Source of the DNA: a virus
Taxonomy: Duplodnaviria; Caudoviricetes
DNA length: 25,744 bases
Reading direction: 5' to 3' (one strand)
IMG/VR virus record: IMGVR_UViG_3300037311_000031
Location: 1 to 25,744 of that record
In this document: positions 5,120-23,654 of the stretch, one piece after another
Position numbering within the stretch: the stretch's first letter is position 1
How the letters are laid out: each line of letters starts with the position of its first letter
Program-made: the position numbers and the translations under genes
The notes under the pieces: model-generated
Databases searched by the model: none
Seen by the model: the letters and a program-made list of their open reading frames with translations, nothing else
Told to the model about the DNA's origin: nothing

Positions 5120-6847
5120 TTAATTCACCGGTTCCGACATGATTTCAAACAGGACATTATCCGGATCGGGCATGAGGTCCTCGACCGGAATGGTGGCCGG
5201 TCTGTCAGTAAACTGGGCTTCCCGCTTAATTTCAAGCGCTCGGGACGGGGTGATCTTACCACTCTTCACCCCGGTGGCCAGATCAATGATGAGGGCATCA
5301 TAATCGAGCTGGGACTTTTCGGTGATCTTGCCATTGTCCTTGGTGATAAAGCGATCAACCTCGGGGTAGGTGGTGCTGAGCCTGACGAACTTCCGACTGC
5401 TATACCCCTTGGGGTCGTAGTTCGGGAGGTTGCGATCAGCCCACTTGATCCAGTCGGTCCCGGGATACGTCTGCTGCTGAATGAGCATCGCCCGCAGTCC
5501 GTCGGAGTACGCACGCTTGGAATCCTCGTTACCCTCAAGCGTACCATCCAACCCAAGAGACACCTGGGTCGTTGCCCTCAGACGATCAACGGCGGCCCTG
5601 AACAGGGGGTCTTCGGCCGGCGCCTTCTCTGACTTGTCAATCAGGTCCATGGCCTTGATCGCCGTCTCGCCGTCGATGACCCCATTCGCCAGTTGCCGCA
5701 TCACCGCAGTGCGGGCGGTTTCAGCCATGCCCCTGACGGTAGACGAGTTCTGATTAAACAGATAAGGATTGCGGATCATAAGAATAGACCGCGCAATCTG
5801 AGAGAACGCCTCCTTAGACTGGCGCGGGTCCTTGATCCGAGCGTCAGCCAGTTCCTGTAGGCGGCGCTGACGAACCATCTCAGCCAATGACCCGCCCCGG
5901 TCAGGATCAATATCTCTATTGCGGATGGCGGCGATGATCTCGTCGTTGGTTAATGTGCCACGGATATACTTTTCCGTCAGTAGGGCATTGCCATTATCGA
6001 ACCGCTCCTGTTCGTCGCGGTTCATTCTCGACGAATAATCATTGAGATCATCCAATAGAGCGCGACGGTCGGTGTCCGTCATGCGATTGGGGTCGAGCAG
6101 GATAGACTCCCGAACCGCATCAAGCTCACCCTCATTCTCCGCCTTATACATGCGGATCATGTACCCGCGCTTATCGACTTGGCTCGCAATGTAAGTTGCT
6201 CGTTCCTGAGCCTTTTCCGGGTCATAAACACCCAGAATAACTGATCGGTTAAGAGCTTCGAGAGCACTCTTCTCGTCACCACCCGCAATAGCACTTTCGA
6301 TTGCAGCGTCCGTGCTTGCCTTGCCATATGCAATGGCCCTATTGATTTGCGTAGTAGCGACAGCAGCCGTGCCCGGTGCCCCGTACCGGGTCTCAAGCTG
6401 TAACCTCAGCCTGTCTCTCATCCGGGGATTGCGCACCCCATTGACCGCTTCATCGATGATCGACTTCGATTGACGGTCCCACCAAGCTCCGGCTACCTCA
6501 TGTGTGAACACACGAGGCCGGAGTTCCTCTGCACTGGTACCGTCGGGTTTGACGATGGTAGCATACCTGTTGAAGTCGACGCCTTCCGGGATTTCCTCCG
6601 GGTCCACGCTCAGACTGGTGGTCAGCTTGGACTCAAGGGCCGACAGGCTCTGAGCCGCATTACTGAACGCCTGGGTGAAATCAGCCTCATCCATCACATC
6701 GCGAGCAAGGATGGCGCCTTGGTTCAGCGTGTTGACAAAGTTCTGCGCAGCCGCGCCCACAGCGCCGGCCGACTGAGGACTTTCAGTGGCCAGCGGCTGT
6801 ACGGCCCGCGTGTAATTGATGGCTGGTAGTTTCATTACTTCCACCAA
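5120..6847 (-). CDS. Internal virion/ejection protein (gp15-position)
   Basis: 575-aa mostly helical-looking ORF between the small and large internal proteins. The start may be 6847 or the ATG at 6835 that overlaps the upstream stop. Confidence 0.65.
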   Translation of the reverse strand: MVEVMKLPAINYTRAVQPLATESPQSAGAVGAAAQNFVNTLNQGAILARDVMDEADFTQAFSNAAQSLSALESKLTTSLSVDPEEIPEGVDFNRYATIVKPDGTSAEELRPRVFTHEVAGAWWDRQSKSIIDEAVNGVRNPRMRDRLRLQLETRYGAPGTAAVATTQINRAIAYGKASTDAAIESAIAGGDEKSALEALNRSVILGVYDPEKAQERATYIASQVDKRGYMIRMYKAENEGELDAVRESILLDPNRMTDTDRRALLDDLNDYSSRMNRDEQERFDNGNALLTEKYIRGTLTNDEIIAAIRNRDIDPDRGGSLAEMVRQRRLQELADARIKDPRQSKEAFSQIARSILMIRNPYLFNQNSSTVRGMAETARTAVMRQLANGVIDGETAIKAMDLIDKSEKAPAEDPLFRAAVDRLRATTQVSLGLDGTLEGNEDSKRAYSDGLRAMLIQQQTYPGTDWIKWADRNLPNYDPKGYSSRKFVRLSTTYPEVDRFITKDNGKITEKSQLDYDALIIDLATGVKSGKITPSRALEIKREAQFTDRPATIPVEDLMPDPDNVLFEIMSEPVN

Positions 6848-7230
6848 GCGGCAGCGGCGCTAAACGCATTGGAAGCGGCATTCAGCAGGCCGGCGTTAAA
6901 CTGAGATTTGGCGGTGTCGTTACCTGCCTTATACAGGCTAGCCCCCCAATTCTTCATCCATCGCATTTCTTCCATGTACTGTTTAGTCATTTCGTCTACA
7001 TATTTCTGTGGTGTCGATCCACGGACGTTGTTACGTACACCAGAAGCGCCGATCATAGTACGGGTCATGCCGATCTCGGCATTGAAGTCCTGCTTGCGGC
7101 GGCGCATTACCTCTCTGGCTTCGGCCTGATCCAGCTTAGCTTGTTTCTTGGCAGCCTTCTTGGAACCCGAAGCACCGAACGCCCCGGCAGCCAATGAAAG
7201 CCCGCCAGCGATGACTGCTCCCCAAACCAT
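6835..7230 (-). CDS. Small internal virion protein (T7 gp14-like)
   Basis: 131 aa with a hydrophobic Gly/Ala N-terminus (MVWGAVIAGGLSLAAGAFGA), an Ala/Lys/Gln helix and a GASGV motif, as typical of this family. Expected synteny. Confidence 0.75.
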   Translation of the reverse strand: MVWGAVIAGGLSLAAGAFGASGSKKAAKKQAKLDQAEAREVMRRRKQDFNAEIGMTRTMIGASGVRNNVRGSTPQKYVDEMTKQYMEEMRWMKNWGASLYKAGNDTAKSQFNAGLLNAASNAFSAAAAWWK

Positions 7231-14819: not shown

Positions 14820-16482
14820 TCATTTCCCCTTGCTGTGGTGGTGTAACTGCTGCGGCCTCCCCGACCGCCTTGGCGCCCTTGCCCATCTGCTCAGCAAGCT
14901 GGGCCTGGGCCATCTGACTCTCCATCTGCTTACGGCCCTTACGGCGCGTAGTGATCTCCTTCTCAGAATTAAGCATCGTCGCAGGCACACCCTCCAGAAT
15001 CGCGAGTTCAGTCGCAATGTTATCGAAGTTCGGAACATCGAGAACGGAAGGCTCAACCTGAGAAAGCTCACTGAGCGTAGCGACCCAGCGGCTGACACCC
15101 ATGACCAGATCAGTACGCTGGGCACGAATAAGCGGGCCAGTGTAAACGATATCCAACTCATTATCAGCATCCTCGGACGCCGCGATCGCGGGCGGGGGCG
15201 GGATCACCCCAGCACGGAGCAGGATATTAAAGGTTCGCTGGACCATTGGATCTAGGTAATCTGAACGAAGCCGACCGGCCGTTGGGCCGAGCAAACGCTG
15301 CATCAACTCGTAGCGGATGTTCGACTCAGTGGCCGACATTTGGGGCGAGTCTTTAAGCTGCAGCTGATCAACGTAAAAAATCTTGTTGATCGATTCCTGC
15401 AGACCCGCCTTCTGTAGCTCAGACACGTCGAAACGAGCAGCAGACTCATGGGTGCCAATATCGTCCATCGACCTCACAACCACGACCCTATCGCCCGACA
15501 TATCGAGATCGGAAAGGAGGCCACGCTCAGTCACCTTGGTGACGGGGTCGATAGCCTTATCAGCGGCAGTGAGAGTCATCTCAACCAGCTGATTAAGGGT
15601 CAGGATATCCGGCATGGCGACCATGGCCGGGCTATGACCCCACATTGACTTGCTGGTGCGGCGCCAGCGGGGCATGAAGGCCGGCATCTCGTAGTAGCCG
15701 TGCTCATCGCCCATTTGCTCACCGGTTTCCTGCATCACGTACTTGACACCGTACGGGCGATTCTTGGGTGCGAGCTTCTTGAAAGAATTCTTGTTCTTGG
15801 CCTTGTTAGGTCGCGGATAAACACACATGATGACTTCGATCTTGTCACTACTGACAGGATCTTTCTCATGTAGGTCCTTGATCTTTTGTGGGACCTTATC
15901 ATCGCCAAACTTGGTGATGATCTGGAGCGGAGTCCAGAAATAGCGGCGATAGAAAATCTCGATCCGGCCGCGATGGTCAAGCTCGGCTACGCAGTCATCG
16001 ACAGGCACGCATTCGAAGGATAACTCACGATAGCGGTTATTGCTATCAGCGATTTCTTCCTCGACAATGAATCCGGACCCGTACCCAGTCAGATCGAGGT
16101 ACAGTTCATTGCTCTCAAGATCGAAATTGGAGTCCTGTAAGGCAAGATGACACTTACTGGACGCATCCTGTAGCCACTTCCGGGCTTCCTGATCCTTGTT
16201 AATGTTCGGGTTACGAAACATCAATTCGAACCAGCGGTAAGCCGACGAAGTGAGGGAACTGTGCATCGACGAGGCAAGGATGTTGGCAGCATTTACCGCC
16301 GTGGAGTCGAAGATCTGCCGGTTAGCCCGCCAGTCTACGGCATTTTCATCGGCACTGGTATTGCCGTAAATGTCACCCCGGTAGGGGAACACATACCTAT
16401 TGACGAGATCCCATACGGACTCGATACCACTACGTTGCTGCTTGAGAGAATTGTAGCGGGTGCGAATTGACTTAGGTTCCAT
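14788..16482 (-). CDS. Portal (head-to-tail connector) protein
   Basis: 564 aa; IFDSTAVNAANILAS, SNFDLESNELYLDLTGYG, WGHSPAMVAMPDI and MSATES...LLGP motifs of the T7 gp8/BPP-1-type portal. Confidence 0.95.
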   Translation of the reverse strand: MEPKSIRTRYNSLKQQRSGIESVWDLVNRYVFPYRGDIYGNTSADENAVDWRANRQIFDSTAVNAANILASSMHSSLTSSAYRWFELMFRNPNINKDQEARKWLQDASSKCHLALQDSNFDLESNELYLDLTGYGSGFIVEEEIADSNNRYRELSFECVPVDDCVAELDHRGRIEIFYRRYFWTPLQIITKFGDDKVPQKIKDLHEKDPVSSDKIEVIMCVYPRPNKAKNKNSFKKLAPKNRPYGVKYVMQETGEQMGDEHGYYEMPAFMPRWRRTSKSMWGHSPAMVAMPDILTLNQLVEMTLTAADKAIDPVTKVTERGLLSDLDMSGDRVVVVRSMDDIGTHESAARFDVSELQKAGLQESINKIFYVDQLQLKDSPQMSATESNIRYELMQRLLGPTAGRLRSDYLDPMVQRTFNILLRAGVIPPPPAIAASEDADNELDIVYTGPLIRAQRTDLVMGVSRWVATLSELSQVEPSVLDVPNFDNIATELAILEGVPATMLNSEKEITTRRKGRKQMESQMAQAQLAEQMGKGAKAVGEAAAVTPPQQGEMSESPDTAEVA

Positions 16483-17860
16483 TTCTCATCGATCGGATTA
16501 CCCGACGACCTCCAAGAATCAGGCCAGACGTCCGCTTGACGCCATAGGATTTGATGACACGCCGATCGGTGGTAGGAATCCGGGAATCGGTCCCGGTATC
16601 AACCCAACCCAATGATAGGTAGCGCATCGCGTCGGCGGCGTGCGATGCCCAATCGTGGACCGGTCGGTCGCTGAAAACGTTATTCTTCTCGTCGAACTTG
16701 CGACGATAGGAGCGCAGGGCGGAGATGAGCTTCTCGGTCGCGGGTTTGTTGAACCGGGCGACCCGGAGCATGCGGCGGGTGGCGTCTATCCCGTCCGCGA
16801 TGCTGATATTCGGGATAAGTTCGAAAGATACACCAAGCGAAGCCGCAATTTCCCGCCTTGTCTTTGCGGAACTCCACTCCCTCTGTTCAAGGTCGTGGGG
16901 ACCATAGTGCTCATCGAAGATGTAGTCGGTATTTTTAAGTTCCCTAGCCCAGTAGTCAACACCCTTGTTTCGCTCTTCGAAGTAGTCGATAATGTCAGGC
17001 TTCCCATAGGAGTTACGCTGTGTGATAATGATGGAATTAGCATCGCGGACACCGATATCCCACCATGACTGACACGGGCGCGAGGGATCGTGGGGGAAGT
17101 GACCGATCCTGCCCTGGGTTTCTGCGAGCTTGATCTCGTCCGTGTAATACGACCCCTCTAGGCCGATTTCGAACGAGCAGTAGTACTCCTGCTGGATTTT
17201 CTCTGGCGCCATTCCCGAGCGGCGCTCTTCTTCAATAATCTCCGGGCCAATGACTGGAGTACCGTCATGGCGTTTAGTATCATCCACAGTAAGAAGAGAG
17301 TAAAACCAGTTCGGATTATTCCGAGCCATTTCCGACAGGTGATACCCATGATTCTTACCACGAGGAGTGTAAATGAAGATGGCCCAGCCGCCGTTTTCTG
17401 CTAGGATCGGCCGGAGGTAATCCCAGGCCGCCGGGTCGGCAACCGAGTACTCAGAGAAAACTACGCCGACAGGGTTGGTGCCGACGAGTCGGTCGTAGTT
17501 GTCAGACCCGACGATCTGATAGATAGACCCGTTGGCGAGGTTTATCTTCATCTCCGAATCGTTGGGTTCCTTGGCGCGGATTTCAGGCGGGAAAGCCTGA
17601 TCAATCATCCGCCGGCCATCACGATCAATGCCATCCCAAATGACGCGACGGCCCTGATTCAGAGTCGGGAGCATGTGCCAGATCGTGCCGACCCGCAGCT
17701 GGGAAGCCACAGCCGCGAGGTTTAGTGCGCTGGAGTCCTTGCCGGAGCGGCGATGCCAGACCAGAGCCGCCCGCTTACGGTCCATCCCGTCCTTCAACAT
17801 GTAGTGGAAGAACGGGCGCTGGTAATCGCGGGCGGACCACTGGTTAGGCAGCGTTATCAT
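16472..17860 (-). CDS. terL: Terminase large subunit
   Basis: Walker A-like VWHRRSGKD, VVFSEY (Walker B-like), TPRGKN coupling motif, QEYYCSF, nuclease WDIG and HDWASHAADAMRY. Confidence 0.95.
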   Translation of the reverse strand: MITLPNQWSARDYQRPFFHYMLKDGMDRKRAALVWHRRSGKDSSALNLAAVASQLRVGTIWHMLPTLNQGRRVIWDGIDRDGRRMIDQAFPPEIRAKEPNDSEMKINLANGSIYQIVGSDNYDRLVGTNPVGVVFSEYSVADPAAWDYLRPILAENGGWAIFIYTPRGKNHGYHLSEMARNNPNWFYSLLTVDDTKRHDGTPVIGPEIIEEERRSGMAPEKIQQEYYCSFEIGLEGSYYTDEIKLAETQGRIGHFPHDPSRPCQSWWDIGVRDANSIIITQRNSYGKPDIIDYFEERNKGVDYWARELKNTDYIFDEHYGPHDLEQREWSSAKTRREIAASLGVSFELIPNISIADGIDATRRMLRVARFNKPATEKLISALRSYRRKFDEKNNVFSDRPVHDWASHAADAMRYLSLGWVDTGTDSRIPTTDRRVIKSYGVKRTSGLILGGRRVIRSMRNGT

Positions 17861-18377
17861 CTAACTCTCCATCGATGACGACACCGACCTGCTTGGTTTC
17901 ACCAACCATCGCCGACATATCGAAGTTGATGATAACGGGCCGCTTCTTCTCGTTCCCGAGCGGGGCGATATACCCGGAATGCTTCGCCATCATGTCAATG
18001 ATACGAAGATGCGACGAAGCGTCGTACCGCTGGGTAGTAACAGAAATACCCATCCCGGGGACGAACTCAGAAACAGCCTCGTCACCCTTGGCACGGGGAA
18101 GGGCAACATGTAAGATTTCATGCTCAACCAGCGCCTTCGAAATGAGGGACGTACGCTCGACGTCTGCCTGGAGAAATCCAATAAACTCTCGGATGCGGGG
18201 ATCGCGCAGAAGGTTGATACCTCGATGGCGGGAGTAACCCGCCGCCTCGGCCGCATTAGAGTGATTGTAGTCTACCAGGTAACGGAACGCGAATGTTCGC
18301 TCCTGTGGCGTGAGCGATTCCCCGGGCAGCGACTCTTTCGTAATCGGCTCCGATCCGGTAGGTAGCTTCTCGGGCAC
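17844..18377 (-). CDS. terS: Terminase small subunit
   Basis: LTPQERTFAFRYLVDYNHSNAAEAAGYS...LLRDPRIREFI is the TerS HTH signature. GGAGG lies 6 nt before GTG 18377 (the ORF track starts at 18401). Confidence 0.85.
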   Translation of the reverse strand: MPEKLPTGSEPITKESLPGESLTPQERTFAFRYLVDYNHSNAAEAAGYSRHRGINLLRDPRIREFIGFLQADVERTSLISKALVEHEILHVALPRAKGDEAVSEFVPGMGISVTTQRYDASSHLRIIDMMAKHSGYIAPLGNEKKRPVIINFDMSAMVGETKQVGVVIDGELDDNAA

Positions 18378-18502
18378 GGACGACCTCCAGAAGACGTGCA
18401 TTCAAAACGGACTCGCGATCCTCTAAACCACATTCCTCGGCCGCGACCGTATACGTCAGCGGAGGAAGAACGCGGGTGAGCGCATATACGAGCATGGGAG
18501 AT

Positions 18503-18532
18503 ATCGTATCACGGACGGGGGGTCGCCGTCAA
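18503..18532 (-). promoter_or_regulatory. Sigma70-type promoter of the late/packaging operon
   Basis: cTTGACG, 18-nt spacer ending CGTGA, TACGAT. Confidence 0.8.
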
Positions 18533-18535
18533 GTG

Positions 18536-18573
18536 TATAAGGGTTCGGAGGCGGACGGTATATAAGGGTTCGG
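18536..18573. repeat. 13-bp direct repeat TATAAGGGTTCGG x2
   Basis: Exact copies at 18536-18548 and 18561-18573, just upstream of the late promoter -35. Confidence 0.9.
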
Positions 18574-18822
18574 GGCCGAATCGGTCCCGGTTGGAGGAGA
18601 TGGAAAGCCGCGAGGCGCCGGCTTTTCGCCCGGGGGTGCTGGGTGCCTGCGCTCGCCCGCGTGCGCGCTTTGGTCGTTCCCGCCCCCGTGCGCCCGCCCG
18701 CGTTTCGTGGTGTGCGGCCCCCGGCCCCGGGCCGGGTTGCTGCGTTGCGGCGCGTCGCGGGGGCGCGTGCGCCGTGTGCGGGTTTGCGCCCGCCCGTCGT
18801 GCGCCCCCGGTTCTGTCGGTTG

Positions 18823-18891
18823 CCGTTCGTCGCCCGTCTTGTGCCGTTCGTCGGCGGGGGCTTGCGCCCGGCCCCCGTTTCGTGTTTTCCT
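18823..18891 (+). promoter_or_regulatory. Putative adenine-free early promoter with upstream tandem CCGTTCGTCG boxes
   Basis: cTTGCGC (18862-18867), 18-nt spacer ending CGTGT, TTTCCT (18886-18891). Boxes at 18823 and 18844 parallel those at 20273 and 20294. Confidence 0.5.
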
Positions 18892-18957
18892 TGCTCTTGC
18901 CGGGGCCGCCCCGGCCGCCCGCCCCGGGCGCCCCGGGGACCGACAGGAGAAACGCCC

Positions 18958-19422
18958 GTGCCGCACAGCAACACGACCGCCACCGACGCGCGCACCACCG
19001 CCGCCCGCACCCGGGAGGAAGCCGACGCCGCCGCCCGGGCCGCCGAGGCCGCCGACCGCAAGGCCGCCGCCCGGGCCGCCGCCCGGCCGGACGACGACCG
19101 GGCCGCCGAACGCGCCGACGAAGCCGCCGACGCCAACGGCGCCGCGCAGCAGGCAGCCGACGCCGCCCGCCGGGCCGCCGACGCGGCCGAGGAAGCCGCC
19201 ACCGCGACCAGCGCCGCCGCAGCCGCCGACGCGGCCCGCCGGGCCGCCGAGGCCACCGAGGAGGCCACCGAGGCCGCAGAAAACGCCGGCGCCCCGGGCG
19301 GCCTCTCGCTTTCCGCCCGGCTTTGCGCCCCGGCTTGGGCGGCTGCCGCTGCCGCCGCCCGGGCCGCCGTGGCCGCCGCCCGCGTGGCGGCCGTCCGGGG
19401 CGCCGGCTTCGGGGCTTTTTGA
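18958..19422 (+). CDS. Ala-rich early protein (154 aa), function unknown
   Basis: RBS AGGAGA and GTG start; MPHSNTTATDARTTAARTREEADAAARAAEAAD...; GCC/GAC/GAG codon usage in one frame; start region duplicated with the next gene. Confidence 0.7.
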   Translation: MPHSNTTATDARTTAARTREEADAAARAAEAADRKAAARAAARPDDDRAAERADEAADANGAAQQAADAARRAADAAEEAATATSAAAAADAARRAAEATEEATEAAENAGAPGGLSLSARLCAPAWAAAAAAARAAVAAARVAAVRGAGFGAF

Positions 19423-19456
19423 CGCAACGCAACAAACACCCACAGGAGACACGACA

Positions 19457-19672
19457 GTGCCGCACAGCAACAAAGCCGCCACCGCCGCCCTCGACTGGCT
19501 CGACCGCTTCGAAGAAGCGCTCGGGGAGGAGCTTTGCTCCGCAGCAGACCTCCTGCCGGCCGGGGCAACGGACGCCGACGCCGAAGCGCTCGAAACCGAA
19601 GCCGCCGCCGTCCTGCGCTCCGTGTACGACGCGCTGGAGCAGCACCGGCTGCGCCTCGCGAAGCTCGCGTAA
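19457..19672 (+). CDS. Small acidic early protein (71 aa), function unknown
   Basis: RBS AGGAGA and GTG start; MPHSNKAATAALDWLDRFEEALGEEL...; amphipathic helical pattern; followed by a hairpin. Confidence 0.78.
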   Translation: MPHSNKAATAALDWLDRFEEALGEELCSAADLLPAGATDADAEALETEAAAVLRSVYDALEQHRLRLAKLA

Positions 19673-19693
19673 CGACCGACCAGCGGCCAACAA

Positions 19694-19719
19694 CCCGGCC
19701 CGGCGCAAGCCCGGCCGGG
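19694..19719 (+). terminator. GC-rich hairpin with GCAA tetraloop, no U tract (terminator or 3' stabiliser)
   Basis: CCCGGCC-C-GGC-GCAA-GCC-C-GGCCGGG, 22 nt after a stop codon. Confidence 0.55.
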
Positions 19720-20272
19720 CGTCGCTGTGCGCGAACCCAAGAGAGGGGGCGTCCCCTTGCGCCGTCCTTCTCGTCCCCCGTCCTTCGGGACGCGAGGTCG
19801 CCGGGTCGTGTCGTCCGTACCTCCCCCGTCTCTCTCCCTCTCTCTTCTCTAGAGAAGGACGGGAAGGACGGGAGGGACGGCCCGGCGTCGGACCGGGGCC
19901 CGTGCCCGTCCTCTGGCTTGTCCTCGCGTCCTCCTCGTCCGGGGTTCGGCGCAGGCTTCGAGTACAGTAGACCGGGGGGACCTCCCCCCCTCCCCCCGGG
20001 GGGGTATTTTGCCGCAGCGCGGCACCGGACCGGGGGTCGGTCGGTGGTCCGGCGCCCCGGGGGGCCACGGGGACGGCCGGGGAGGCGCTCGGGGGGGAGG
20101 GTCGGTACCCCGGTAGGGACCCCCCTCTCCCGCGTCTCCCGTGGCCTCCCGTTAGTCGCAACGGCGGTCCGTCTCGGGTGCTGCGCCCTTTCTTGGGTTG
20201 TCCCGGACGGCCCGGACCTCCCCCCGGGGAAACCCGGCCCGGCGGCCCGGCGCCCCGGCCCGAAACCCACTA

Positions 20273-20351
20273 CCGTTCGTCGCCCGTCCACTACCGTTCG
20301 TCGGAGGCCGGTGCAAGGTACTTGACACCGCCCCCGGCCCCGTGGTCTACT
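20273..20351 (+). promoter_or_regulatory. Early promoter with upstream tandem CCGTTCGTCG boxes
   Basis: cTTGACA (20322-20327), 18-nt spacer ending CGTGG, TCTACT (20346-20351); boxes at 20273 and 20294. Confidence 0.75.
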
Positions 20352-20415
20352 TCGCTCTACGGCCGGCGAACACCGGCCAGAACCGAGAAACCAGAAACAC
20401 CAACGGAGAACGCAA

Positions 20416-20883
20416 ATGAGCAAGCGCAAGAACCAGACCGCCCCCGTCGCCGCCCCGGCCCCCGCGACCAAGCCGGCCCCGAAGGCCGAGGGCAAGACGA
20501 AGCCGGCCGCCCCGGCGCCGGGTGGGGCCAAGCCGGTCCGCCGGCAGGCCGAAACCCTCGCCCGGTACCGTGCCAACTACGTCGCCAGCGTCAGCGCGAC
20601 CGGGGCCAAGAGCCTGTCCTGCGGCGACGACGTCGCCTCCTTCCTCTCTGGGTTGGCGGTGCTCGACGTGGTCGCCCTCGCGGAGCGGGTGTGCGAGTTG
20701 CCCGCCGGCACGCTCCTGACCAAGTACGACCGGCTGAACACCGGGAGCAAGCGGATGAACGCCGGCAACCGTATCCGGGCCGCCGTCAAGGCCGGCGACA
20801 CCACCCTGCCCGAGTTGAAGAAGCTCGCTCGGGGCGCCGTGGCCGCCCGTACGGCCAAGGTCGAGGAGGCCACCGCAGCCTGA
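20416..20883 (+). CDS. Basic early protein with Lys/Ala/Pro-rich N-tail (paralogue 1)
   Basis: RBS GGAG, ATG, 155 aa; core clearly aligns with 23208-23654. Confidence 0.88.
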   Translation: MSKRKNQTAPVAAPAPATKPAPKAEGKTKPAAPAPGGAKPVRRQAETLARYRANYVASVSATGAKSLSCGDDVASFLSGLAVLDVVALAERVCELPAGTLLTKYDRLNTGSKRMNAGNRIRAAVKAGDTTLPELKKLARGAVAARTAKVEEATAA

Positions 20884-20913: not shown

Positions 20914-20955
20914 GATGGTCCGCCGGTGTTTGCCGGCGCTGATGAGGTCAAGGTT

Positions 20956-21246
20956 ATGTTTCTCGTAAGCTACACCCACTCCGGGACCTGCGGTCCTTGG
21001 TACCACCCGGTCCCGCTGGCAACCCTCGAGGCCGCGCAGGAGGTCATCCGGCAGGTCATGAAGCGGCAGGAGCTGGTCGTTACGATCCCGTTGACCCGGT
21101 CAACCGTTGGCATGATCGATACGTCGTACAACATCGAGCCGACGGTCCGGGCTTGGTTCATGGTGGCGACCCGCTACAGCTATAACCCGGACGACTGCGC
21201 CCGCTACGATTTTCACGTCGTCGAAGTCCCGGGGGAGGGTGCCTGA
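20956..21246 (+). CDS. Hypothetical protein (96 aa)
   Basis: GAGGT before ATG 20956; stop overlaps the next ATG (TGATG). Confidence 0.7.
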   Translation: MFLVSYTHSGTCGPWYHPVPLATLEAAQEVIRQVMKRQELVVTIPLTRSTVGMIDTSYNIEPTVRAWFMVATRYSYNPDDCARYDFHVVEVPGEGA

Positions 21247-21404
21247 TGCGCGCCCTCCTGCTGGTCCTCTCTATTGGGTTGGGCGGCTGTGCCGCCCTGT
21301 CCCCAACCACCTGCCCTGACGGCAGCCAACCCACCAGCTGGTGCGGTTGCGACACGCCCATCATTCCGCCGTCGCCTGACGGCACCGACCCGGGAGATTG
21401 CTAA
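21246..21404 (+). CDS. Small Cys-rich lipoprotein (52 aa)
   Basis: Not in the ORF track. MRALLLVLSIGLGG-CAALSPTTCPDGSQPTSWCGCDTPIIPPSPDGTDPGDC has a signal peptide with lipobox LGGC and is coupled by TGATG and TAATG overlaps. Confidence 0.8.
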   Translation: MRALLLVLSIGLGGCAALSPTTCPDGSQPTSWCGCDTPIIPPSPDGTDPGDC

Positions 21405-21754
21405 TGATCACCAACGTCTGCACCCTGCTGCGTTCCATCGTCATTGTTGACGAGATGGGCGCAATCATCGACCACAGCACGGCCATGATCGGTGGTTTCC
21501 GATATGTTGGCTCCGCCAAGGCCAAGGCAACCGAGGACATGATCGGGCGTGGCCTCCGGCCCTTCTACATGGACCCGCAAGATTTCACCGGGTCGCTGGA
21601 GTGGTCGCCCACGATCGGCGTGCTCGACCAGTGGAACGCAACGGCAACCAAGGAGCACGTGCTCACGGAAAGCACCGGCCCCCGCCCCGTGCTCACGCAC
21701 GTCGTGTACACGATCAACCGGCTGGAGATCGAGGTCGTCATCCAGACGACGTAA
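21404..21754 (+). CDS. Hypothetical protein (116 aa)
   Basis: GGAG before ATG 21404, which overlaps the upstream TAA; ends just before the next promoter. Confidence 0.7.
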   Translation: MITNVCTLLRSIVIVDEMGAIIDHSTAMIGGFRYVGSAKAKATEDMIGRGLRPFYMDPQDFTGSLEWSPTIGVLDQWNATATKEHVLTESTGPRPVLTHVVYTINRLEIEVVIQTT

Positions 21755-21759
21755 CCCAC

Positions 21760-21789
21760 TTGACGGGCCGGGCGGAGTCGTGCTATACT
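21760..21789 (+). promoter_or_regulatory. Sigma70-type promoter
   Basis: cTTGACG, 18-nt spacer ending CGTGC, TATACT. Confidence 0.85.
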
Positions 21790-21824
21790 CCGCCCTGCCC
21801 CTCTCACACAACGGAGATTCGGTT

Positions 21825-22046
21825 ATGCCACTACGCAAGACCAGACCTGAGGACGAGTTCGCCCAAGAGCTTGAGGCGCTCGTCGACAAACACAGCATGC
21901 AGGGCGTCATCGCCATGCTTGGGGCCATCGCCCACGAAAAGGCCAGCCACATCGAGTGCAACTACTCCGACGCCAGACTGGCCGAGCAGTGGCGCCTCGT
22001 TTCACGCCTCCTGAACGCGCCGCTCCGGCAAGCGAGGGACCTGTGA
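21825..22046 (+). CDS. Hypothetical protein (73 aa)
   Basis: GGAG RBS, ATG 21825; MPLRKTRPEDEFAQELEALVDKHS... Confidence 0.78.
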   Translation: MPLRKTRPEDEFAQELEALVDKHSMQGVIAMLGAIAHEKASHIECNYSDARLAEQWRLVSRLLNAPLRQARDL

Positions 22047-22264
22047 AGACACCAATGGACCACCACTGGAAGCGCATCAACTTCCAGCTGGCAACCACCG
22101 TCGCAGCCGGTGACCGCAACGTGCGTGACCGGCGGGCGCAGATCCTCCTCGGCTACGTGTATGAGGCCATCAACGAAGCCGCCGCATGGACGTTTGCCAT
22201 CGGCCTCGTCCTCGGCGCCGCCGTGACTTTCATCGTTACTCACATCCCCAACCCCGGAGCTTAA
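22043..22264 (+). CDS. Hypothetical membrane protein (about 73 aa, one C-terminal TM helix)
   Basis: GTGA overlap with the previous stop; hydrophobic AAAWTFAIGLVLGAAVTFIV. Confidence 0.65.
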   Translation: MKTPMDHHWKRINFQLATTVAAGDRNVRDRRAQILLGYVYEAINEAAAWTFAIGLVLGAAVTFIVTHIPNPGA

Positions 22265-22265
22265 C

Positions 22266-23105
22266 ATGGCCAAGAAAAAGACCGGTCCCGACGTCGGGAC
22301 CACCCCCGCAGGATCGCTCGCCCCATTGGATGCCAACGAAGGCAAGTGGTGGGACGGCGTTCCGGCTGAGAGCCTGACCAAGCTGAACGATATCAGCGAC
22401 AACATCAACGAGATCGTGACCGATGCGGTCAACAGCGTGGCGCAGGCTAAGCTGAAAGTCGGGCGCCTCCTGCTGGAGGCACGGGCACTGATCACCGATG
22501 ACAACCAGTTCGGGCGCTGGCGGCAGGAAAAGACCGAGATCAAGTCCAAGCAGGAGGCGCACTACCTCATGCAGATCGCGGACAAGTTTAAGAACGCGCC
22601 CGCGCTCGTGAAGTCCGCACCCATCGGCGTCCTGCGCGAACTCGTCACCGCCCCGTGGGAGGTCGTCAAGGAACTGGAGGACAAGGCAGCCAAGGGCGCG
22701 CCCGCCCCGTCCGTGCGTGAGACACGGGCGACGGTGGCCGAAGCCAAGGGCAAGGCGAAGCCCGAGCCGGTGGTCATCGAGCACGTGGCCGAGATCCCGC
22801 CCAACCGCGTGCCCGTCCAGCCGCAGACCGGATTCCAGGCAACCATCAACTCCAGCTTTGCCAAGCGGTTGTCGATGGCCGAGAATTTCATCCTCAACGC
22901 CCGGATCGGGTACAAGACGGCGGTGCAGTGGTCCTACATCATCTTTGGGTTGGACCCCGATCCATCCTGCAGCCCGAACGAGGGTACGATCGACGCGCTG
23001 AAGATTTACTACGAGAACCTGACCTCGATCGACCGTGAAAAGGCGCTCGTGCAGAAGGCGTACGAGCACATCACCTACGACCGCGACCATTTCCAGGAGG
23101 GGTAA
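22266..23105 (+). CDS. DUF3102-like (ParB-type helical DNA-binding) protein
   Basis: 279 aa; KVGRLLLEARALITDDNQFGRWRQEKTEIKSKQEAHYLMQIADKF fits the DUF3102 pattern G-x-x-L-x-E-A-[RK]...F-x-x-W...S-x-x-x-A-x-x-x-M as I recall it. Confidence 0.65.
   Translation: MAKKKTGPDVGTTPAGSLAPLDANEGKWWDGVPAESLTKLNDISDNINEIVTDAVNSVAQAKLKVGRLLLEARALITDDNQFGRWRQEKTEIKSKQEAHYLMQIADKFKNAPALVKSAPIGVLRELVTAPWEVVKELEDKAAKGAPAPSVRETRATVAEAKGKAKPEPVVIEHVAEIPPNRVPVQPQTGFQATINSSFAKRLSMAENFILNARIGYKTAVQWSYIIFGLDPDPSCSPNEGTIDALKIYYENLTSIDREKALVQKAYEHITYDRDHFQEG
22281..22301. repeat. Copy 3 of dispersed 20-mer (18-bp palindrome at 22284-22301), at codons 6-12 of the DUF3102-like gene
   Basis: 22280-22301 is identical to 12685-12706. 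Confidence 0.95.
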
Positions 23106-23110
23106 CCTCC

Positions 23111-23140
23111 TTGACGGCCCTCCCTCCGGCGTGGTACCAT
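23111..23140 (+). promoter_or_regulatory. Sigma70-type promoter
   Basis: cTTGACG, 18-nt spacer ending CGTGG, TACCAT. Confidence 0.82.
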
Positions 23141-23207
23141 GTGTCCTACGTCGGGGGGAGGTACCCCCAACGCAACTAGTACCATTCCACCCTCAGGAGA
23201 TACGACC

Positions 23208-23654
23208 ATGACCAAGTCCGTTTCGAACAAGGCCGCCAAGGCCGCCCCCGCCCCGGCCAAGACCAAGGCCAAGGCCGCCCCCGCCACCCCGGGCAAGACG
23301 ACCATTCGCCCGGACGTCAGCCAGTACGTGAAGGGTCGCACCGCCAGCGGCAAGCGCTCCTTCAATAACGGTGATGCCGTCGCCTCGACCCTCAACGGTC
23401 TGGCGCTGGAGGACGTGTACACCATCGCTGAGAAGGTGACCGGCAAGGACGGGCTGGAGGCCAAGTACAGCGGCCTCAACCCGGGCCAGCAGCGGATGAC
23501 GCTCGGCAACCTGATCCGCGCCACCGTGCGGAAGCTGGAGGCCGAGAACGCCGGTACCGGCGAGCGGGCACTGGAGGTCGCGGCGAAGTCGTTCGTTGCG
23601 GCGCGAGACAAGGCGCTAGCCGCTGCCGAGAAGGCTAAGGCCAAGGCAGCCTAA
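23208..23654 (+). CDS. Basic protein with Lys/Ala/Pro-rich tails (paralogue 2)
   Basis: RBS AGGAGA, ATG 23208, 148 aa, strong codon bias; homologous to 20416-20883. Confidence 0.88.
   Translation: MTKSVSNKAAKAAPAPAKTKAKAAPATPGKTTIRPDVSQYVKGRTASGKRSFNNGDAVASTLNGLALEDVYTIAEKVTGKDGLEAKYSGLNPGQQRMTLGNLIRATVRKLEAENAGTGERALEVAAKSFVAARDKALAAAEKAKAKAA

Follow-up and report, generated by a model that had tools for sequence, protein, structure and literature searches.

A tract of segregated A and T beside terS in a podovirus with a probable 2-aminoadenine genome

Genes and features at the locus

The DNA analysed here (IMG/VR record IMGVR_UViG_3300037311_000031, all 25,744 nucleotides of it, in the following called the window) is, judged by its genes, from a podovirus of the ZP6/phiVC8 type. 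Leftwards after terS follow terL and the genes for the portal, capsid, tail tube and internal virion proteins, and the rightward arm contains early genes and an SNF2-type helicase; the T7-like portal, tail tube and internal virion proteins as well as the synteny match those of ZP6/phiVC8-like podoviruses. By terL the nearest named phage is Alteromonas phage ZP6 (58% identity; phiVC8, 36%). In the terL tree the window fell into a group with ZP6, phiVC8 and the genome G006 (94/92, unstarred); the portal tree gave no resolved placement. No terL relatives closer than 66% were found in scans of IMG/VR, metagenomes and GTDB, and scans with terS and with the gene at 20416-20883 yielded no new locus. 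The tract described below is flanked by terS on one side and by the divergent early genes on the other (Table 1), which agrees with the place next to terS given in an initial annotation.

Table 1. Features of the window in the order of their positions (Z, 2-aminoadenine).
Feature	Position	Strand	Remarks
terL	16472-17860	leftwards	
terS, terminase small subunit	17844-18401	-	phrog_51, E 6e-8
terS promoter	18503-18532	-	sigma70-type, leftward, TTGACG-18-TACGAT
Two 21-nt direct repeats	18533-18578	+	directly before tract
Block 1	18614-18938	+	no A; all A/Z on - strand; non-coding-looking; 40-nt G/C-only end
P2 paralogue (P1-like)	18812-18925	+	A-less putative promoter; -35 TTGCGC (18862-18867), 18 nt, TTTCCT at -10 position (18886-18891)
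ORF1 (candidate gene)	18958-19422	+	154 aa; GTG start, AGGAG
Block 2	18960-19303	+	no T; template strand free of A/Z; 20-nt G/C-only end
Block 3	19284-19421	+	A-free; repeats 19002-19081 in direct orientation; at its end a terminator-like hairpin and a run of T
ORF2	19457-19672	+	71 aa; pI 4.4; GTG start; called by JGI and Logan
Zone II	19491-20415	none	A and T mixed; ApT nearly absent
Non-coding element	19770-19960	+	conserved pyrimidine tract, then purine tract; alignment with phiVC8, L002, L041
Promoter P2	20322-20351	+	TTGACA-18-TCTACT, no A at -11 position
Gene a, phrog_8941/8878	20416-20883	+	155 aa, basic
Promoter P3	21760-21789	+	-10 TATACT
Gene b, phrog_8941	23139-23654	+	likely start 23208; paralogue of gene a; marker of PurZ phages

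The arrangement of the terS promoter was also present in 26 of the 29 relatives examined. The termini of ZP6 were set with PhageTerm, according to the accessible text of PMC8515928, and the end of the ZP6 record, assuming that the record starts at a terminus, has the terS promoter on one side and the first rightward promoter on the other. From the place of the terS promoter in the window it follows that the tract begins about where a genome end would be expected, in a position which appears homologous to the ZP6 record end. The 21-nt direct repeats could be a packaging or terminus signal, and the host-type promoters and small early ORFs suggest that the tract end is the first to enter the cell.

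ORF1 consists of an acidic, Ala/Glu/Asp/Arg-rich part without T and an Ala/Val-rich tail without A, and its 5' end is paralogous to ORF2; GTG is the start codon of both ORFs, and Ile and Met are absent from their products. The exact sequence of ORF1 was absent from the protein collection. Neither ORF gave meaningful homologues: ORF2 matched only itself, and long matches in one search look compositional. ORF2 is, by position and charge, a candidate early anti-defence protein; family searches gave no Ocr or Ard match for it. The non-coding element (Table 1) is possibly a replication origin. Rfam models found no match inside the tract, and only a sub-threshold hammerhead outside it. An early protein of 279 aa (22266-23105), conserved in the genome G001 and in phiVC8, showed a weak match to DUF3102, below the cut-off.

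A probable Z genome and its marker gene

Gene a matched 43 records, with ZP6 and phiVC8 first. Gene b matched 57 of 50,697 phage records, and all 57 were among the best 60 of 62 PurZ records (E 1e-30; accessions compared by eye). The family phrog_8941/8878 spans podo- and siphoviral PurZ phages of Proteobacteria, with a conserved motif in the alignment. It was absent from S-2L, Wayne, OspP_OH and one PurZ-less relative; missing in the first three, it is not universal in Z phages. The PurZ cluster is carried by ZP6, BUCT555 and phiVC8, the last of which we take, from literature listings, to be a proven Z phage. The clade nearest to the window in the terL tree includes G006, whose PurZ scores above the NCBIfam cut-off and which also has a DatZ-like gene. 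PurZ was found in all three complete IMG/VR records tested (3/5 of that set in all); in other tested sets 0/5 were positive and 4/5 negative, the negatives being fragments.

Since the window breaks off in the helicase, short of where the purZ/datZ cluster would be expected, purZ lies outside the contig and a 2-aminoadenine (Z) genome has to be inferred; with two phrog_8941 genes present and 57 of 57 records linked to PurZ, it is likely, on strong grounds. The initial annotation did not notice that the phage very likely has a Z genome.

The model of gene a (pLDDT 79) predicts a small hairpin plus helices as a confident core. For the phrog_8941 family, comparison with the Atlas gave TM values of 0.30 or less. 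A TAL-repeat protein was considered and rejected, the matches being weak and no stretch passing.

The base-segregated core tract

On the + strand the two A-free runs of 325 and 138 nt and the T-free run of 344 nt (blocks 1, 3 and 2, Table 1) are the longest of their kinds in the window. Runs of G and C only lie at 18899-18938 (40 nt) and 19284-19303 (20 nt). Within 18939-19303 and 19422-19490 the only T's are 18959 and 19458, each inside a GTG start, and a single ApT, at 20006, was found between 18601 and 20415. The runs, the stray T's in the GTG starts and the single ApT had been claimed in the initial annotation, and every coordinate given there proved exact on recount. Shuffles, which had been proposed there as a control, gave at least 62 switches between A and T (mean 88.4; 10,000 same-letter shuffles) versus 7 in 18614-19490, and their longest A- or T-free runs had a mean of 53 and a maximum of 130 nt. 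The base segregation is thus confirmed as real at the sequence level.

The GC content of the tract is 80-85%. All six frames are open across it, but a stop codon is impossible without A or without T, and open frames alone are therefore no evidence of genes. Palindromes of 4 bp containing only G and C are not depleted (84 versus 87.5 expected), in agreement with the earlier caveat that such sites persist. Single-strand folding was no better than that of shuffles (z +1.1 for RNA, +2.2 for DNA). A stem-loop between T-rich and A-rich blocks was rejected: folding was at the shuffle level, and the inverted repeats were G/C matches.

A GC-rich non-coding end, followed by a T-sparing protein rich in Ala, Glu, Asp and Arg and overlaid with normal strand skew, could perhaps produce blocks by ordinary composition. 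In relatives (L089, L117, L122), runs of 99-128 nt without T occur close to phrog_8941 regions rich in Ala and Lys, ZP6 shows a T-rich block, a promoter and an A-rich block at this place, and the Ala-rich protein does account for part of block 2. Left unexplained are the 325-nt A-free block, the in-frame A-free tail, the loss of all 20 A's from the P2 paralogue (see below), the single ApT in 1.8 kb and the absence of T at synonymous sites of block 2 (P 1.5e-4, from the usage of neighbouring genes). These observations already largely refute ordinary composition, which we consider very improbable.

The ApT-poor zone beyond the blocks

The blocks at 18614-19490 are the core of a larger ApT-poor zone, which stops just past gene a, at about 20914. 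Between 18602 and 20914 there are 4 ApT versus 35.1 expected, and in the next 2.3 kb (20915-23200) the number is normal (88 versus 78.2). In zone II, A and T are balanced (123 and 132), and ApT is reduced to 1 versus 17.3 expected with TpA normal (15 versus 17.3), as it is generally beyond the blocks. Depletions below p 0.001 were obtained for A-N8-T (6 versus 17.0), A-N9-T (3 versus 16.3), T-N-A (3 versus 14.8) and A-N4-T; A-N6-T (12/17.5) and A-N7-T (17/19.6) were not significantly depleted. Pairs with A before T are 87 fewer than those with T before A (p 1e-4, or 5e-4 when the null is built from blocks of 100 nt).

The initial annotation had proposed that the tract is purged of restriction sites. 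In its classical form, the entering end would lack the A...T geometry needed by Type I and II enzymes, either tolerant of Z or meeting plain A at the ends, until an Ocr-like ORF2 product is made. Much of the pattern agrees with this proposal. The 877-nt tract contains 5 A-N(6-9)-T pairs (5.7 per kb), all at the two ribosome-binding sites with GTG starts, versus a density of 144-194 per kb over the bulk of the two arms, and palindromic sites with A and T are gone. The dips in zone II at 8 and 9 nt fall on the commonest methylation intervals of Type I enzymes (21 of 33 enzymes with known interval in Table 1 of PMC3874165, as far as that text was available), and the order effect, A before T, is significant. 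In the portion available of PMC12944874, 47% of 147 Type II enzymes are stated to cut dZ DNA still. Precedents exist in T5 and T7 (accessible parts of PMC10644984 and PMC3874165), and the ORF2 product is acidic.

Other parts of the pattern do not agree. The strongest signal is ApT itself, and bare ApT is too short for a classical restriction site; the intervals of 6 and 7 nt show no significant loss; T before A is also removed in the block region (zone I), where palindromes of G and C only are normal. Elsewhere in the window there is no strong avoidance of any A/T-containing restriction-modification palindrome (GATC 0.99), the asymmetry of A before T does not extend to the whole family, Vibrio phage K292 has the opposite pattern (see below), and ORF2 is without an Ocr or Ard match. 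The loss of A/T sites stands; we regard its reading as a classical site purge as rather unlikely.

Base-stripped paralogues and promoters

The P2 paralogue kept none of 20 A's versus 74 of 93 other bases, and the lost A's became C (10), G (8) and T (2). In the repeat forming the tail of ORF1 (block 3 versus 19002-19081) all 9 A's are replaced, and the start of ORF1 kept 1 of 7 T's in comparison with the start of ORF2. The commonest change is A to C (14/29). At non-A positions the paralogue pairs differ in 19/93 and 8/71 cases.

Deamination, with A to G as the main change, was rejected, since A was replaced by all three other bases and the changes are not biased towards G. The same replacement by all three bases would be expected of adenine-directed mutagenesis, by retrohoming as in diversity-generating retroelements (DGRs) or by synthesis of the end under dATP shortage, erasing A strand by strand. 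Against such a process stand the non-A differences (19/93), the loss of ApT only in zone II, and the lack of a reverse transcriptase among the scanned ORFs of the window, which is an incomplete genome; the pairs resembling template and variable repeats differ also at non-A sites, and thus do not have the hallmarks of DGRs. We regard this process as highly improbable.

A to C is a known class of Illumina error, and as the commonest change here it would be compatible with a sequencing or assembly artefact in a stretch of 80-85% GC. The tract is known from a single record, ORF1 is missing from the protein collection, and the P1-like element looks non-functional. Several observations speak against an artefact: in zone II the two bases are balanced and only their order is lost; T is kept or more frequent where sites in block 3 are synonymous (6 versus 2.5); relatives show a similar trend at the corresponding place; and ORF2 is listed by Logan on a contig 8,745 nt long, as is terS, likely one independent assembly across the tract, possibly of the same sample. 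We consider an artefact quite improbable.

The sequence TTGCGC is the first -35 box also in K292, L091 and L117. A TANNNT promoter was found in the leading zone (defined below) of 19 of 26 relatives, among them phiVC8 and ZP6, and none in that of the window. The motif GATT, which L002, L041 and phiVC8 have in the non-coding element, is absent from 19770-19960. Together with the base-stripped copies and the GTG starts, the P1-like element and the lost GATT may be read as signs of selection.

Such selection could have acted on transcription, if host RNA polymerase is poor on Z: the promoter's non-template strand (block 1) and the template strand of the gene (block 2) would then be kept free of Z. 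The order of the blocks, promoter and then gene, is as expected, and the P1-like element and P2 lack the -11A, while P3 and the terS promoter retain it. The C2 hydrogen of the -11A is reported to be important for melting (PMC4496690, in the part available), and Z is substituted at C2. Yet the 19 relatives keep their TANNNT promoters in this zone, block 3 places Z in the template within the same ORF, and neither the ApT loss in non-coding zone II nor the loss of AA and TT in K292 would be explained. A constraint of this type appears improbable.

Leading zones of the relatives

The comparison set comprised 142 fetched loci (1.65 Mb). Their longest A-free, T-free and ApT-free runs were 107, 128 and 485 nt, versus 325, 344 and 1406 nt in the window, and no second copy of blocks this long was found among the relatives examined; S-2L, PMBT28, Wayne, OspP_OH, SH-Ab 15497 and part of Bm1 likewise had no comparable blocks. 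The initial annotation had suggested a search for similar tracts beside terS in relatives; what these share is a GC excess, and comparable long blocks are lacking.

A maximum of GC (800 nt) beside terL and above the late genes was present in 12 of 12 phrog_8941 loci (median +0.145), versus a median of +0.007 and a maximum of +0.06 in 19 controls (p 4e-6; the loci are related to each other, and controls may lack a terminus). OspP_OH, which is PurZ-positive without phrog_8941, had an excess of +0.14. For a finer comparison, the leading zone was defined as the kilobase at a fixed offset from the terS promoter, which left 26 loci after 3 of 29 without a promoter match were dropped; only 1 of 14 controls could be matched by promoter, and a zone including terS-side genes diluted the signal. 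GC was above the rest of the locus in all 26 leading zones. ApT was lower in 17/26 only (p 0.17), and the asymmetry of A before T was present in 14/26 (p 0.53).

Individual loci differ. ApT is strongly low in L106, L120, L002 and ZP6, each with its locus minimum in the leading zone (loci chosen post hoc); the lowest ratio of ZP6 is 0.53. The leading zone of phiVC8 shows neither an ApT deficit (0.95) nor a loss of AA or TT. In Vibrio phage K292 (L138, OZ195702.1) the leading 1 kb or so has TT 6 versus 27 and AA 26 versus 55, with ApT enriched 2.4-fold (83 versus 34), a mirror image of the window, again chosen post hoc. L106 would appear to be an independent, milder case.

Some further properties of the relatives were recorded. 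L106 (G011) is a complete PurZ podovirus with ApT at 0.33 of expectation at about 5900-6560 and a small acidic, GTG-started first ORF. The K292 record annotates a DNA methyltransferase. L097 and L098 have an A-free run of 107 nt at the corresponding position, and in L002 some eight repeats of 21 nt stand in tandem at about 6600-6900, before the first promoter. L034 (MW202510.1; terL 48%) has no PurZ but a cluster for pyrimidine hydroxymethylase, and lacks a GC-rich end. GATC is avoided genome-wide despite PurZ in phiVC8 (0.03), PMBT28 (0.01) and ZP6 (0.23; set L028, L029, L032, L090), and CCGG is avoided by ZP6, phiVC8 and SH-Ab 15497; the window outside the zone avoids neither.

Proposed concealment of Z from a host nuclease

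The explanation which we tentatively favour is that the first-entering DNA purges and segregates Z and so evades a host nuclease of low specificity, which reads Z, until early proteins appear. Selection would have sculpted the presumed entry end so that Z is scarce and occupies only one strand of any given stretch. The presumed nuclease or sensor would read Z on both strands (ZpT, Z-N-T) and is predicted to be blind to the segregated tract; subsequently an early phage protein, either ORF2 or a phrog_8941 protein, would neutralise the defence. Each unforced boundary between A and T would cost a G/C buffer, so few boundaries would persist and the blocks would become long.

Z:T and G:C pairs have three hydrogen bonds each. 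A swap of Z:T for G:C therefore gives no easier melting, and it should be the base as such that is purged; the GC excess beside terL in the phrog_8941 loci would accordingly reflect the identity of Z and not duplex stability. The words avoided consist of two letters each and change from lineage to lineage, which favours a nuclease or sensor reading Z; a host could probably afford a specificity of two letters solely against a base which is absent from its own DNA. In the text available of PMC12944874, dZ DNA transformed two Mrr+ strains 46- to 63-fold less well, an effect described by its authors as small and unproven. Pointing in the other direction, HhiV4I, a sensor of 6mApT, leaves dZ DNA uncut (accessible part of PMC11037411), and no established Z-specific nuclease was found in the portions of the literature searched. 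Also against a Z-reading nuclease, ApT depletion is not significant family-wide, phiVC8 is without a deficit, and the A-N8-T and A-N9-T dips fit Type I enzymes.

A broader version of concealment from a nuclease, which is possible but rather doubtful, would be that various hosts have Z-sensing nucleases of two-letter specificity, ZpT in some and ZpZ in others, that podoviral Z phages sculpt their first kilobase, of which the tract is an extreme, and that phrog_8941 lifts the constraint. The matter bears on whether bacteria specifically detect Z-DNA, and on how a Z genome manages to survive, and is read for the first time, when it enters the cell. If true, the leading ends of Z phages would record the specificity of host defence (ApT here, AA/TT in K292), DNA of the tract would be a ready test substrate, phrog_8941 would be a core gene, overlooked so far, of the Z phages of Proteobacteria, and anti-defence selection would be powerful enough to alter a promoter, start codons and the amino-acid palette of a protein.

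Comparison with known systems

Neither A/T segregation nor a Z-poor leading end, nor the use of phrog_8941 to mark Z phages, was found described in the open-licence literature, including the accessible parts of PMC13128860, PMC12884076, PMC12191111 and bioRxiv 10.1101/2025.10.22.683976. First-entering DNA free of sites is of a known kind. In T5 and BF23 the site-free first-step-transfer DNA decides resistance to Type I and II enzymes, but there specific sites are missing from otherwise ordinary DNA, in a 9.7-kb repeat (PMC10644984, as far as accessible), whereas in the window whole classes of A/T arrangement are removed over 0.9-2.3 kb of a likely Z genome. The leading region of T7 with Ocr belongs likewise to a podovirus and has promoters of the host type and, at its early end, a small acidic protein (text available of PMC3874165); ORF1 and ORF2 match no family, and an entry pause and an Ocr function as in T7 are only hypothetical for the window. 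Phages with modified DNA need a counter-factor against Type IV-like systems, for instance the T4 inhibitors of GmrSD and anti-END (accessible text of PMC12191111); in contrast to these, no inhibitor was identified in the window, where protection would come from the DNA sequence itself. Most similar are the PurZ-DatZ podoviruses ZP6 (Mareflavirus) and phiVC8, VP2 and VP5 (Enhodamvirus), which have in common with the window terS, an early arm with two phrog_8941 genes and a helicase, the conserved non-coding element, a small acidic first ORF and a GC-rich zone by terS; unlike the window, they have A- or T-free runs of at most 44-62 nt, canonical first promoters and ATG starts.
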